Of a DNA stretch of 64,000 nucleotides, positions 3,743 through 43,535 are shown one piece after another (the stretch's first letter is position 1; the number at the start of each line of letters is the position of its first letter). The notes below the pieces were generated by a model. It saw only the letters and a program-made list of their open reading frames with translations, ran no database searches and had not been told where the DNA came from. This DNA comes from Octopus vulgaris. Lineage: Eukaryota. The position numbers and the translations under genes are program-made. The DNA lies in the NCBI GenBank assembly GCA_951406725.2, contig OX597829.1, forward strand, positions 52,328,001 to 52,392,000, in the 5' to 3' direction.

Positions 3743-3883
<141 letters not shown>

Positions 3884-9028: not shown

Positions 9029-9125
9029 CCTATCTCATTGGTACTCTTGGATATTCAACCAATGATGCCAGTTCTGGAAGGAGTTGTCATGGAACTAAAA
9101 GATTGTGCTCTCCCACTGCTGAAGG
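9029..9125 (+). CDS. MDH1: MDH1 coding exon
   Basis: ttttatag acceptor and gtaagt donor; 97 nt; [32 protein letters not shown]. Confidence 0.97.
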
Positions 9126-10519: not shown

Positions 10520-10695
10520 AAATAACATCAACTGCTGATACTGATGTTGGTTTTAAGGACATTGATGTGGCTCTTCTTGTTGGTGCCATGCCACGTAGAG
10601 AAGGAATGGAAAGGAAAGATCTCTTGGCTTCCAATGTGAAAATTTTCAAGAGTCAAGGGCAGGCTCTAGATAAATATGCCAAAAAGAGCGTCAAG
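10520..10695 (+). CDS. MDH1: MDH1 coding exon
   Basis: tctcag acceptor and gtacga donor; 176 nt, phase consistent; (E)[58 protein letters not shown], including the substrate-loop arginines. Confidence 0.98.
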
Positions 10696-12412: not shown

Positions 12413-12535
12413 GTGGTCGTGGTTGGAAACCCTGCCAATACAAATGCTTTAATATGCATGAAATATGCTCCATCTATTCCACCACAAAATTTCTCAGCAT
12501 TGACTCGACTTGACCAAAATCGGGCTCAATATCAA
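12413..12535 (+). CDS. MDH1: MDH1 coding exon
   Basis: tttcag acceptor and gtatgt donor; 123 nt; [41 protein letters not shown] (catalytic Asp, substrate Arg). Confidence 0.98.
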
Positions 12536-13990: not shown

Positions 13991-14167
13991 ATTGCTAACA
14001 AATGTGGTGTCTCTGCCCATGATGTCCACAACGTGATTATCTGGGGGAACCATTCCTCTACCCAATACCCAGACATTTCCCACGCAACTGTAAAATTATC
14101 ATCTGGGACAAAGTCAGTTAAAGATGCTGTTAAGGATGATAAATATTTGAAGAATGATTTCTTAAAG
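13991..14167 (+). CDS. MDH1: MDH1 coding exon
   Basis: poly-T/gccag acceptor and gtatca donor; 177 nt; [59 protein letters not shown] (catalytic His in WGNHS). Confidence 0.98.
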
Positions 14168-17052: not shown

Positions 17053-17166
17053 TGTGTTCAAGAGCGTGGAGCTGCAGTTATTAAAGCCAGAAAATTGTCG
17101 AGTGCAATGTCTGCTGCTAAAGCTATTTGTGATCATGTCCATGATTGGTGGCATGGAGTGCCAAAG
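17053..17166 (+). CDS. MDH1: MDH1 coding exon
   Basis: (CT)n-ttttcag acceptor and gtaagc donor; 114 nt; [38 protein letters not shown]. Confidence 0.98.
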
Positions 17167-19859: not shown

Positions 19860-20140
19860 CTCCATTATTAACTCGTGAAGTAATGTCAAAGTTGAAGCAG
19901 AGCAGCTGTTAACAGATGTCGTTTCTTGCCTTCCTTTAGTTTTGTTTTTGTCTAAATCATATTTCACAATGTTTTCTACTTCAAGGAATCTTTGACATAC
20001 AATTTGTGTCTACAAGTATGTTTCATGACTAACTTTGATTTAAAAATTTTAAATAAAAAATAAAGTGTTTCCAATGTTTTCTGGACACACAATTAGTTTT
20101 TAAATTTTAATAAAATAAAGTTTTCTTTTGTTCATTTCAG

Positions 20141-20350
20141 GGTAATTATGTATCAATGGCTGTTTGTTCAGATGGTTCCTATGGTATTGAAAAGGGTCTC
20201 ATGTTCAGTTTTCCGGTGACTACCCATTCTGATCATACTTATGAAATTGTCCAAGACTTGGCTATTGATGACTTTTCCAGATCTAAACTGGATATAACTC
20301 TCAAAGAACTTCTCGATGAAAGAGATCTTGCTTTGAGTGTTTGTGAATGA
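20141..20350 (+). CDS. MDH1: MDH1 last coding exon
   Basis: catttcag acceptor; 210 nt; [72 protein letters not shown]; exons sum to 332 aa if a single upstream ATG is added. Confidence 0.97.
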   Translation, partial: [69 protein letters not shown]

Positions 20351-20371
20351 CTGTTTGATCCTAAATTGTAA
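20348..20371 (+). other. MDH1: Candidate stop-codon readthrough extension X-LFDPKL with PTS1-like C-terminus
   Basis: TGA CTG TTT GAT CCT AAA TTG TAA, in frame with the CDS. Confidence 0.65.
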
Positions 20372-20781
20372 CCTTGCCTTAGACAAATATCTTGTGAAAA
20401 ATATGATATTTTTAGATATCCTTTAGTTTACACAGCTACATCTTTATAATTTGATTCACAAAGAAAATATTTCTCTGATAAAAAATTAATTTTTTTAAAG
20501 ATTTGCCCTGAAACTCAAGTCCTTAGGTTAAATTTTCTGTATCTGATTCAATAGATTAAGTGATTGTGCTAATTGTTTTGGCAAAATGATGTCCCTATCA
20601 AGAAGTAGATATTTTTAAAATGAAGAATAAGGTATATATTATGGTAAAACTGTTTCAGAACAAGAATCGATCAAAAAGTAAAATTAAAAATAAAGAATAA
20701 AACGTTAAAAAAAAAAATGAAAACGGTTTATTGATCTGAAGAATAACATATTGAAATTTTGCTTGTAATTCATGTCTTCAG

Positions 20782-20787
20782 AATAAA
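20782..20787 (+). promoter_or_regulatory. Probable MDH1 polyadenylation signal
   Basis: AATAAA about 430 nt after the stop, followed by a T/GT-rich tract; alternative AATAAA hexamers near 20689-20701. Confidence 0.45.
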
Positions 20788-21774
20788 TATTTGTAACAGA
20801 ATTCTATACTGTATTCTTGTTTTATACATTACACTTGCACATACATACATAAGCAAATAAATAAACCGTTTTTCCATGCTTGGTTGGGGGTGAGTCTCAC
20901 AGAGACTCTAAGATCCTTTGTCATTTGGGATATGGCAGCAGAGGAAACCAATCCTAGTTGTGTATATGATTTTATGATCAGCTTCCTTTATTTTACAGCA
21001 TAGACTCTATGCATTTTATCATACTACTGGCACTGAAAAGATTGTCTGTGACATGAGTAGATAGCCCCTTCTTAATAACTGAATAAAAGGGGAAAAAAAG
21101 CAAAACCAAATTTTATTCAGTTATTTGCTCCTAGCTGGTTTGTCTGCTCTGAGACTTGTGCAGTCCATTGTCTCTTCCATTCATTCCTTTCATATTGCCA
21201 ACCCCACTCACTGGTCATTGTTCTAAAATTAGAGAAAAGCTTCCGTAAGAAAGACGCGTTAACAAACTTGCATCAGAATGTCAGTGTATCTCTACTGAGT
21301 GACTTCAACCTGCCTTAGCCTCAAATGGCCAAAAAGACTACCTTCTCTCTGGAATTCACAGTATGATGACAAACAATCTTCACTTGACCTCATTGTTATT
21401 CAAGTCATTGGAATAAATGGTCCACTGCAGATGCAAAGGCAACAAAAGTAATTTGAAAATTATGATATAATGGTGACTCTTAAGTTCTTTTCTCCAACCA
21501 CATCATCATCATCATCATCATCGTTTAACATCCGCTTTCCATGCTGGCATGGGTTGGATGGTTTGACTGAGGACTGACAAGCCAGGAGGCTGCACCAGGC
21601 TCCAATCTGATCTGGCAATGATTCTACAGCTGAGAGTGTAGTGGTTGCATTTCACATGCCACCGGCACAAGTGTCAATCAGATGGTACTGGCATCAACCG
21701 TGCTTTTTACATGCCACCAATATGGGAGCCAGTCAGGCAGTGTAAAATTAATGATGTGCAGGCCAAGAGAAAAT

Positions 21775-31410: not shown

Positions 31411-31489
31411 CCTGATACCTGATTCACAAAAGGGACAGAGATGCAGGTAAAGCAGCAAAATGAGATAACTGATGCAATCTTTGTGGAGT

Positions 31490-31990
31490 TAACACTAAAT
31501 ATATCACCTGCATCATAAGCAGTTGTCTGGAAATGTTATTTTGGTATAATCTACCGATGAGACATGATGTTGCTAGGACACTCTATAATGAAATATGTTG
31601 GAAGGATAATCCCAAGGACAAAGAAATAAGAACCCACAGTATGGTAGAAGCCATAGCCACTCATAATAAAAAGAAATACTGGAGGAATGTACCAGTGAAG
31701 ACCTCAATAAAAAGGAAGCACAACAGACCTGATATAATGATTTGGGATAGAGAAGAGAAATTATGCACAGCTGTGGAAATTAGCTGCTCAGTGGATGTTA
31801 ACATAAAGCTGAAGATCAGTGAAAAAGAGAACACCTATACTGAACTATTGAGAAATCTGCAGTTACTCAATCCAGATTACAAGTTCAGGTTTATACCTGT
31901 AATTATTGGGGCCCTGGGATATGTAACACATTGCCTAAATACCAATCCAATCCATCACTGGGACTGTAAAAATCTGTAAAACTTTCCAGA
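31490..31990 (+). pseudogene. R2-group (R4/NeSL-like) non-LTR retrotransposon 3' fragment, restriction-like endonuclease
   Basis: HIISSC..RHD..HNRPDIMIWD..VEIS..K..Y..IPVIIGALG motifs. Confidence 0.8.
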
Positions 31991-35120: not shown

Positions 35121-36372
35121 TTAGGCGGTCAAGAAAGTTCTTGTGGTTTTTAACCTTTAAATTCAGATGCACATATCTCAGCTCAAACAAAGCTTTATTA
35201 AAACACCATCAGAATCAACACACTTTTGCCAATGCGAAACAAGTTTATTTATGCCAGTAGCATAAAATTCCTGCGTTCTGGTGGCGATGAAGTCGGTGAA
35301 GGTGTGTATCTTGGTTTTTGAAGCATTTTTAATGCAGGATGTTGTCGAGATGCTTGAAAAAGGGGTAGTCAGTAGGCAAGAGGCCTGGTGAGTATGGTGG
35401 ATGAGGCAGAGTTTCATAGCCCAATTCGTACAACTTCTGCAGGGTCAGTTGTGTGATGTGTGGCTTAGCATTGTTGTGGAGAAGAACTGGTCCTTTTCTA
35501 TTGATCAATGCTGGCTGTTGTTGTCAGAGTTTCTTATGCATTTCATCCATTTGCTGACAGTACTTCTCCACCGTAGTGGTTTAGCCTGGATCTAAAAAGC
35601 TGTGATGGATGAGACCAGCCGTAGACCACTTCTTTTGGTGCAACTTTGGCTTCGGGAAGTGCTGTGGAGCTTTGTTGGCATCCAACCACTGAGCTGAGCA
35701 TTGCTGGTTGACATGAAGAATACACTTTTAATCACAAGTCACAATCCGGTTGAGAAATGGGTCGTTCTTGTTGCATAAAAGAAGGGAAGACGACACTTCA
35801 AAATGGCGTTTTTTGGGGTTGTCATTCAATTCGTGTGGCACCAATTTCTCAAGTATTTTTGTTTTTCCAATCTCTTTCAAGTGGTTGGAAATTGTCATAT
35901 ATGTTATGTCTAATTCAGAAGCAAGCTCTTGAACAGTTGTGCATAGATTGGCTGCAACTAAGGCTTTTAGTTGATCGTTGTCAACATCTGATGGTTGACC
36001 ACTGCATGTATCATCTGCAAGACTCTCGTCACCACTACGAAATTTCTTGAACCACCATTGTGCTGTATGTTCACTAGTGGTGCCTGGGCCAAACGCATCA
36101 TTGATGTCATGAGTTGTTTCAGTATCGTTTCGGCCTAGCTTGAACTCGAATAAGAAAATTGTGCAAATTTGCTTTAAGTCCCTGTTGTATTCAACATTCT
36201 GGAAAAAATGGCCTGATTATTCAAAAAGAAAAAGAGTAACATGATTAAATAGAGCGAAAAACGGGCTTTAAAATTATATATAAAGTCAAAGTAATTTAAT
36301 GAAAATTAATTTGAAAATACATAATTTAAAACCAAAATTAAAAATTCTACAAGAACTTTCTTGAGAACTTAT
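35121..36372 (-). mobile_element. Near full-length degenerate mariner element with both TIRs
   Basis: TIRs tcaagaaagttcttgt / acaagaactttcttga; minus strand PPYSPGLLPTDY and FYATGINKLVSHWQKCVDSDG; ~1.25 kb. Confidence 0.85.
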
Positions 36373-41155: not shown

Positions 41156-42985
41156 TGATGAGCTTCTTTCTGTTTCTGTCTACCAAATCCACTCACAAGG
41201 CTTTGGTCAGCCCAAGGCTATTGTAGAAGACCCTTGCCCAAGGTGCCACACAATGGGACTGAACCTGGAACCATGTGGTTGGGAAGCAAGCTTCTTACCA
41301 CATAGCCACACTGCGCCTATTGAATTTATGTATATGTTGTATGTGATGGCAGCTGCAGCAACTTTAGCAAGTAAATATGTATACGTGTGTGTGCAAATAT
41401 GTGTGCATGTATGTGTGTGTGTCTTTGTATCTGTGTTTGTTCCCAACCACAACTTGACAACTGATGTTGGTGTATTTGTGTCCCCATAACTTAAAGGTTT
41501 GCCAAAATGGACTGATAAAATAAGAAACAGACTTGAAAAAAAACAGTTTTGAGCTTGAATCGTTTCACTCAAATTTTTCAAGGCAGTGCCCCTGCATGGC
41601 CTCAGTCAAATGACTGAAACAAATAAATGTGTATACATATAAAGCTGTTTCACATCTGTTTTTGTTTTATTAATGAACAAATCAATTACATCATATAAAA
41701 AAAACCCATCATCTTAAAATTTAACATTTAGGAATTTTCGCACAAAATATATAGAATGCAGCTCTGAGGTGAGAGAGTCAATATGCATTCTATACTCTTC
41801 ATGTGAAAAATCTCAAATGTTAAACTTTATCTTCATTTTTAATTCACCTGAATTTTTTTTTTTGCATGATGTAATTAGTTTGCTCATAAAGAACGTGTCA
41901 GGAACAGCTGTGGTGAAACTCAACCCATGTGTGTTATTATTTATGCAACACCACATTTGGAACCTTCCCTGTGTTGGAGCTTGAACCTACAGTGGACCAT
42001 GGACTGCATACCAAAATATACTCTTGTGTGGTTTTATGTATATGTTGAGTGTATTCGGTCTATGTGAAACTCGAAGGATAAATCTGTATTTGCTTTAGTA
42101 AATATGTGAGTAAACATGGGTATGCTGTCCGCAACTCTACCTTGATGTCTTTGTTATTAAAATACCTCGATTCTATTAAATTCTGCAGATTATGTGTACT
42201 CATGAAACTTGTGGGTAAGGGGCTAGTCAATTACATTGACCCCAGTGATTGATTGGTGCTTATTTCATCAACCCTGAAAGGATGAAAGTCAAAGTTGACT
42301 TTGGTGGTATTTGAACTCAGAACATAAAGACAGATGAAATGCCACTAAACAGTTTGTCTGGTATCCTAATGATTCTGCCAGCTCTCCACCTTTAGGCAAC
42401 AACAACAATGATAAATGCCCTGATGCAGTACCAGCCAGTGGCTCTCGTGGCTTCTGATCTTAACTGATTGGAAGTGTTATCATGTACATTGTTTTGTCTT
42501 GGTATAAAAGATGGGCTACAGCAAATATTCTGCTCAATACCACAGATTTGCTTGTCAGTTGTTTGACCGTAACCAGTTGAGCATGTCCCTTAGTGGCTGA
42601 CGATATGTGCATCTTTGATCACAAGCAGAAGTAGTAGGAGAGCATCATAGCCATGTGTTGAGAGGGATTCTTTGGGGTTTGGCTAATTCACCTTTGGAAA
42701 CATGTGTGTTTCATTCAACAAGCTTAAACAACCCTTACATGATAAAACCTTTTGAGTGAGATGGGTTACTCAACCAGAAGAAGATTCTAACTGGGCCCCA
42801 CCTACAAGGTCATGCGCTATTTATCTTGATATGAGATCACCATGTCACACACATATGGCTGTGATGCATGTGCCTGGTGTACCATTATCAGACGGGTAGT
42901 TATGATGGGTATACTGAGCTTCATATATTTGTACTCCAGTGTCACTTTGATGGCATGCACTGCTCTCTCACTCAATGATGATAAC

Positions 42986-43535
42986 TGGGAACTATGTAGA
43001 AAGCTAGGATTTGACCATACTGATAAATGGTATGAACATGAACCTAGCAAAGTACTAGAAAGTAATAAATATAAGATGTGGGACTTTAACATTCAGACGG
43101 ACAGAGTAATAAAAGTTAGAAGGCCTGGTGTAGTAGAAGTAGACAAAGAGAATAGAAAGAGCCAGATAATTGACTTTACAGCCCCAAATGATGAAGGAAT
43201 CAATATGAGAGGTAAAGAAAAAAATAGCAAAGTACCTGGACCTAGCCATTGAATTACAAAGATTATGGAAAGTGGGGGTAAAATGTATCCCAGTAGTTAG
43301 AGGTGCATTGGGAACTATCCCTAAAGAGCTGTACAGATGGATAGAGGAAATAGGGATAAAACCCAGTTTAGTACAGTTGCAGAAAACAGTGTTGTTAGGG
43401 ACAGCTAGGATACTAAGGAGGGTTCTTGGCATCTAAGGTTACTTGTTGTAGTCCAATATTTGGATTTTTTAATTTTCCAACAGTCTAATCTGTTGTGAGT
43501 ATATGAATAATAACAACAACAACAATAATAATAAT
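42986..43535 (+). pseudogene. R4/Dong-like non-LTR retrotransposon 3' end
   Basis: WELCRKLG..KWYEHEP..WDFNIQTDRVI..RRP..IIDF, then LQKTVLLGTARILRRVLGI*, (TAA/CAA)n tail. Confidence 0.82.

Follow-up and report, generated by a model that had tools for sequence, protein, structure and literature searches.

We propose that the malate dehydrogenase gene MDH1 of Octopus vulgaris gives rise, through low-level readthrough of a UGA-CU stop, to a predicted peroxisomal isoform (MDH1x) that would regenerate NAD+, and that octopus is a member of the animal MDH1x family. On the evidence of the locus and its relatives we consider this very likely. The first-pass annotation had inferred such an isoform, and both the tails of mollusc orthologues and an enrichment among animal loci support it; what does not stand is any claim to novelty, since invertebrate MDH1x was already known and the cryptic PTS1 of MDH1 has been described as a feature kept throughout animals as far as Hydra (Stiebler et al. 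2014, PMC4207609).

The gene was reconstructed from seven exons with GT-AG borders in the window, that is, the whole stretch of 64,000 nucleotides analysed here (Table 1). Together they encode 331 residues that are identical to residues 2-332 of the O. vulgaris cytosolic MDH (P0121) and show one difference from O. sinensis and 20 from O. bimaculoides. The product has the Pfam domains Ldh_1_N and Ldh_1_C and groups with animal MDH1 on a quick tree. Exon 1 would contain just the ATG and is probably situated some 11 kb upstream of the window: a single candidate (ATG abutting GTAAGT) was found about 11.2 kb before window base 1 (G000:C16). A genome search for the last exon, scoring best candidates only, found it once, and neither this search nor a Pfam search of the genome returned, among the best-scoring candidates, another copy of MDH1 bearing a PTS1 of its own; the Pfam search added MDH2 alone, on another contig (best candidates scored). 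Elsewhere in the window, a mariner (Mos1-type) transposase fragment lies at 35731-36216 on the reverse strand (Pfam HTH_48, E 3e-15), with a further piece at 35181-35444 that has no Pfam match, and two open frames on the forward strand (31473-31976 and 42830-43249) resemble retroelement endonuclease pieces by eye, with no Pfam match at E 0.01.

Table 1 Features of the MDH1 gene in the window, numbered from its first base.
Feature	Position	Strand	Remarks
MDH1 coding exon 2	3770..3868	+	GT-AG border, match to P0121
MDH1 coding exon 3	9029..9125	+	GT-AG border, match to P0121
MDH1 coding exon 4	10520..10695	+	GT-AG border, match to P0121
MDH1 coding exon 5	12413..12535	+	GT-AG border, match to P0121
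MDH1 coding exon 6	13991..14167	+	GT-AG border, match to P0121
MDH1 coding exon 7	17053..17166	+	3' end joined to last exon in contigs
MDH1 last exon, coding part, Pfam Ldh_1_C	20141..20347	+	exon including stop 20141-20350
MDH1 first stop and context TGA CTG	20348..20353	+	UGA-CU core
In-frame tail L-F-D-P-K-L, PTS1-type tripeptide PKL at end	20351..20368	+	
Second stop TAA	20369..20371	+	LINiter 0.13
Rest of MDH1 3' UTR	20372..20801	+	AATAAA at 20689, 20696, 20782; loose A-runs behind 20723, 20801

Positions 20348-20371 of the forward strand read TGA CTG TTT GAT CCT AAA TTG TAA in the MDH1 frame, so that the extension would comprise seven residues, namely the decoded stop and six sense codons (L-F-D-P-K-L). 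This arrangement, which had been read from the window, was confirmed there and in spliced transcripts. Assembled contigs from four of the 20 listed sequencing runs cover stop and tail in every case and show no differing letter there; in three of the four, the loose letters before 20139 are the end of the previous exon, i.e. the spliced form. They differ from the window at one position (20252), and the runs are near-identical, hence no test of conservation. Because the spliced contigs carry the TGA and the tail unchanged, the spliced message genuinely stops at this TGA, and its mature 3' UTR contains the tail. The protein records P0001, P0002 and P0121 all terminate at the first stop, so annotation misses the predicted extended isoform. 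Two apparent poly(A) sites were also seen in the 3' UTR (20683-20801), with AATAAA at 20689/20696 and at 20782.

The transcripts also bear on the idea that the UGA is decoded as selenocysteine or that the tail is supplied by alternative splicing. UGA is the selenocysteine codon, and fungal MDH can acquire a PTS1 end through a splice switch (PMC5133446, in part), but neither a SECIS nor any other RNA family was matched in Rfam up to E 1 within 20100-21300, no joint occurs inside 20000-21300 in the four runs, and with the tail in frame with MDH1 no intron is needed; we regard either route as exceedingly improbable.

A tail of this kind could also be an accident, an ordinary TGA stop that happens to be followed by PKL before the next stop. 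PKL matches the PTS1 expression published in Stiebler 2014, as do the ends of 43 (0.6%) of the 7104 stop-to-stop segments that the window contains in its six frames, 24 of the 7104 ending in [SACP][KRH][LM]. TGA-CT precedes 2.5% of these segments, giving a product of 1.5e-4 for the two frequencies, and under a Markov model of the UTR, CT with a PTS1 end has a probability of 2.2e-4. Both features occur together in two of the 7104 segments, one being the MDH1 tail and the other lying in non-coding DNA. At this rate a few such genes per genome are expected by chance, so the pattern alone proves little and conservation is the real test. However, a joint probability of about 1.5e-4 to 2e-4 applies here to a gene named in advance, and orthologues share the tail, both of which make a chance origin of the pattern unlikely. 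The arrangement recurs in all six mollusc records and in 28 of 48 animal-like loci (from the best 80 of 185 relatives) and not in control frames; on these comparisons chance appears largely refuted, and we rate it very improbable.

For the molluscs, the comparison used protein records only, drawn from 413 proteins, in which the bases +4 to +6 after the stop are not visible. Thirteen of the 413 continue with a tryptophan beyond the usual MDH1 C-terminus. This residue is most likely a TGA read as Trp by the gene caller, since sister records stop there (P0127 and P0130 are identical over 68 residues). Six of these run-on records can be assigned to molluscs by cluster and identity, and all six end in [SAP]KL: W-LLTLESKL in a Sepia-like record (P0310, 98% to Sepia pharaonis), W-LPSAKL in a decapodiform (P0311, 94% to Sepia), W-LFGPKL in abalone (P0362, 100% to Haliotis rufescens and cracherodii), W-PSPKL in the oyster cluster (P0130), W-PASKL in Mytilus (P0329, 100%) and W-PRSKL in a mytilid (P0342, 90% to Mytilus). 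The mollusc alignment that the first-pass annotation had proposed as a check therefore shows the frame and the [SAP]KL end, directly after the stop position, to be kept in six of six protein records. The terminal K and L are invariant across the aligned tails, and abalone LFGPKL equals octopus LFDPKL in five of six residues. The residue after W is Leu in cephalopods and abalone (its codon not being visible) and Pro in bivalves. The bivalve tails (P0130, P0329, P0342) thus imply a UGA-CC context without the U of UGA-CU, and UGA-C alone may be enough in bivalve MDH1, with tails still ending SKL or PKL. Of the other seven run-on records, P0254 and P0300 end in PKL or SKL; P0258, P0280, P0289, P0290 and P0295, none of them molluscan, have no match to the PTS1 expression, and three of these five end SQL. 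No additional run-on records were found in a further 10 clusters, including chiton, Dreissena, Tegula and spiders.

At the DNA level, MDH1 loci were taken from a scan of metagenome contigs as the best 80 of 185 relatives. One locus without a stop and ten with frames below 250 residues were left out, and the remaining 69 were placed on a quick tree (SH-aLRT 90, midpoint root, some long branches). On this tree 48 loci fall with octopus, oyster, insect and mouse-type MDH1 and 21 with bacteria, slime mould and plants. Among the best 80 of 185 no locus is clearly from a mollusc, the highest named identities being mostly 60-75%. Within these best 80 of 185, TGA is the stop in 35 of the 48 animal-like loci and TGA-CT in 19 of 48, against 2 of 21 and 1 of 21 outside the clade, where L025 (TGA CTA) was placed. 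An in-frame end matching the PTS1 expression follows in 28 of the 48 (22 by the strict form), compared with 1/48 in the +1 frame, 0/45 in the +2 frame, 0/44 in the next segment and 3/20 outside the clade. The two features go together: 18 of the 19 TGA-CT loci have a PTS1 end versus 10 of the 29 others (Fisher p 2.5e-5, kinship ignored). The base after TGA-CT in the 19 loci is A in ten and T, C and G in three each. Individual loci read TGA CTC-LFDSKL (L003), TGA CTG-LSDSKL (L048) and TGA CTG-...VPKL (L020). No PTS1 end is present in the remaining 20 of the 48 animal-like loci, including L002, a neighbour of the molluscs on the tree, and Caenorhabditis elegans MDH1 has no PTS1 tail either (Stiebler 2014, PMC4207609).

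Whether the octopus tail is anciently conserved or convergent had been left undecided in the first-pass annotation. Its spread through molluscs and other animals clearly favours conservation over convergence: same-position tails in mollusc, arthropod-like and vertebrate loci argue that the MDH1x trait most probably goes back to early animals and that tail length has since drifted.

Several other arrangements were observed around the end of MDH1. Six loci of a crustacean-like clade (L026, L028, L029, L041, L052, L055) have TGA GG instead of TGA CT after MDH1, and tails in this clade, to which P0258, P0290 and P0295 also belong, end in PKL, SKY, SAL, CQL or SQL; the stop context there may be leaky in an unusual way, or splicing may supply the end, and an intron directly after the MDH1 stop is suggested for P0289. 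A PTS1-type end with no stop before it was seen in P0045, P0053, P0055, P0056, P0086, P0093, L051 and L006, as DSKL in chironomid-like proteins and also as CKL and GKL, and close kin of these forms (L048, L068, L076) have TGA-CT readthrough to a similar end. In L034 (TAG CTG-LSHL) and L046 (TAG GG-GCVVTARL), PTS1-type tails follow TAG and not TGA.

UGA-CU is the published core leaky context, sufficient for readthrough. The full vertebrate motif UGA CUA G is absent at octopus MDH1, where the context is TGA CTG T; that motif acts as an enhancer and was not required in the TGA CT screen (PMC4207609). We scored readthrough with the published linear models LINfs3 and LINiter, using weights from PMC4359377 (in part). 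TGA CTG ranks 10 of 192 contexts, with an LINfs3 of 0.62 versus 0.94 for TGA CTA. The LINiter prediction is 0.40 for octopus MDH1, 0.54 for octopus IDH1 and 0.80 for L014, a mouse-type locus, and of the 7109 stop triplets in the window 1.8% score at least as high as the MDH1 stop. As the second stop has a low predicted leakiness (Table 1), PKL would remain a free C-terminus. The region 20330-20480 folds no better than shuffled sequence (z 0.13; 102 of 200 shuffles as good). With neither a SECIS nor a local fold, octopus MDH1 agrees with human MDH1, for which a short stop context suffices (PMC5133446, in part). Human reporters with the full motif gave 7.8% readthrough for MDH1 and 0.9% for LDHB (PMC12233894, in part), and we infer from this comparison that octopus MDH1 would be read through at a rate no higher than the lower end of these values. 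Around 1% has been argued to be enough, peroxisomal volume being small (PMC4207609).

The weak points named at the outset (CUG below CUA, PKL below SKL, Asp at -4) are real but less serious than they first looked. Mouse LDHB naturally has TGA CTG (Stiebler 2014, PMC4207609), and so do 3 of the 19 TGA-CT animal-like MDH1 loci (best 80 of 185 relatives); PKL falls within the published expression and ends zebrafish IDH1 (PMC8919083, in part) as well as chicken IDH1; and Asp at -4 recurs in the MDH1 tails of L003, L048 and L068 (best 80 of 185 relatives). The same signals raise the possibility that the tail, although real in other molluscs, is a decaying relic in octopus, too weak for a useful amount of peroxisomal MDH1. 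Predicted readthrough is indeed below that of CUA contexts, chicken IDH1 with its PKL end scores only +1.3 in a PTS1 predictor (Stiebler 2014, PMC4207609), other animals have lost the tail, and octopod tail sequence is limited to near-identical runs. Against decay, a neutral 3' UTR would be unlikely to keep the near match to the abalone tail across the gastropod-cephalopod split, PKL also ends the oyster tail, L018, L020, L026 and P0254, and L020 joins this end to the same TGA CTG T context as octopus. We therefore consider a relic unlikely and a functional readthrough signal the better reading.

Editing could produce the same protein if A-to-I conversion of the stop (UGA to UGG, Trp), and not leaky termination, yielded the extended form in the heavily edited nervous tissue of coleoids. 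At 20350 the contigs of the four runs never differ from the window, but rare variants are lost from contigs, which leaves low-level editing compatible with this result. The stop's A has a 5' G, a neighbour that ADARs disfavour, and the local sequence offers no fold. The tail is moreover kept in abalone and bivalves, which are not known for heavy RNA recoding, and recurs with TGA-CT across animals. Coleoids do recode on a large scale, and their editomes are acknowledged to include loss of stops by editing, although the passage concerned names UAG to UGG (PMC8382921, in part); the supplement of that paper, as far as available, has no entry for MDHC, malate, MDH1 or stop and is uninformative on editing at 20350. 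On balance we judge editing in place of leaky termination quite improbable. Equally doubtful is a combined scheme in which editing of the stop in octopus neurons, on top of ancient leaky termination, sets the peroxisomal share of MDH1 and, with a readthrough IDH1x, both NAD and NADP shuttles need stop recoding.

Paralogues in the same genome provided controls for the proposed readthrough. Octopus cytosolic IDH1 reads ...LMTSI TGA CTC and continues with LGRFKPITESKL and a stop (L096:8782-8823; G000:C5, ~128146782). Its tail ends SKL and matches the Aplysia IDH entry in Fig. S3 of Stiebler 2014; it is a second, stronger candidate for a cryptic PTS1 reached by putative readthrough. Mitochondrial MDH2 has TGA ATT and the tail ISTDTLEAKQN, with no PTS1 end, and mitochondrial IDH2 has TAA TGG and no PTS1 tail. 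A cryptic tail is thus present in both cytosolic and neither of the two mitochondrial paralogues examined. Genes of the Pex2/Pex12 family were found in the octopus genome; a Pex14_N search of the genome was blank, as was its control.

We propose the following route. A single spliced mRNA carries TGA CTG-LFDPKL-TAA, and the position of the tail and its PTS1-type end are kept in molluscs and across animal-like MDH1. A near-cognate tRNA would decode the UGA with a frequency of about a few percent or lower, as suggested by human and fungal reporters, with the short context setting the rate and neither SECIS nor local hairpin needed. The inserted residue would be Trp or Arg, as in human MDH1, whose UGA is decoded by Trp or Arg tRNA (PMC5133446, in part). 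PEX5 would then bind the free PKL end and import the extended MDH1, and in the matrix the enzyme would convert oxaloacetate together with NADH into malate plus NAD+, sustaining β-oxidation in line with established peroxisome biochemistry. A readthrough IDH1x beside MDH1x would supply NADPH.

These results add molluscs, and cephalopods especially, to the map of a known mechanism, and they support a single ancient animal origin of MDH1x against a vertebrate invention. The octopus gene offers a natural test of minimal signals, its context (UGA CUG U) and tag (D-P-K-L) being both weaker and both apparently kept since abalone and octopus diverged, and with IDH1x in the same genome both octopus peroxisomal redox shuttles would rest on readthrough. 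A specialist would expect the result, and it opens no new question. We found no published report of MDH1x in cephalopods or other molluscs in a search that excluded most subscription journals and Fig. 4C of Stiebler 2014; Table S2 of that paper has no mollusc MDH1, although Fig. 4C could list one.

Among known systems the closest is MDH1x itself (PMC4207609; PMC5133446, in part), in which the orthologous enzyme has, as in octopus, UGA-CU at the normal C-terminus and a short in-frame tail with Leu first and a PTS1 tripeptide last. The extension is, as anticipated, shorter than the vertebrate one (7 residues versus about 20 in mouse-type L014). The vertebrate forms, as far as the available sources describe them, have UGA CUA G where octopus has UGA CUG U and end CRL, SRL or SSL in place of PKL; the tails are unalignable beyond the first Leu and the end, and the octopus form is known from sequence alone. 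LDHBx (Schueren et al. 2014, PMC4359377, in part; PMC4207609) shares mechanism and superfamily, its human tail having 7 residues and its mouse stop reading TGA CTG, but is a different enzyme, is confined to mammals and ends SRL (PMC4207609; PMC5133446, in part). In dipterans (Drosophila ...SNL, Stiebler Table S2; DSKL in P0045 and P0053) the same enzyme carries the same address at the same place, but the PTS1 is constitutive, with no stop before the tag and no readthrough needed. In insects and in Aplysia, NADP-isocitrate dehydrogenase gains its PTS1 by readthrough (Stiebler 2014, Fig. S3), again through UGA-CU and a PTS1 tail in invertebrates including a mollusc, but the balance served is that of NADPH and not of NAD+; vertebrate IDH1 has a constitutive PTS1 (Stiebler 2014, PMC4207609). 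Octopus MDH1x, as predicted here, is not new in kind and is one more example of a mechanism described across animals.
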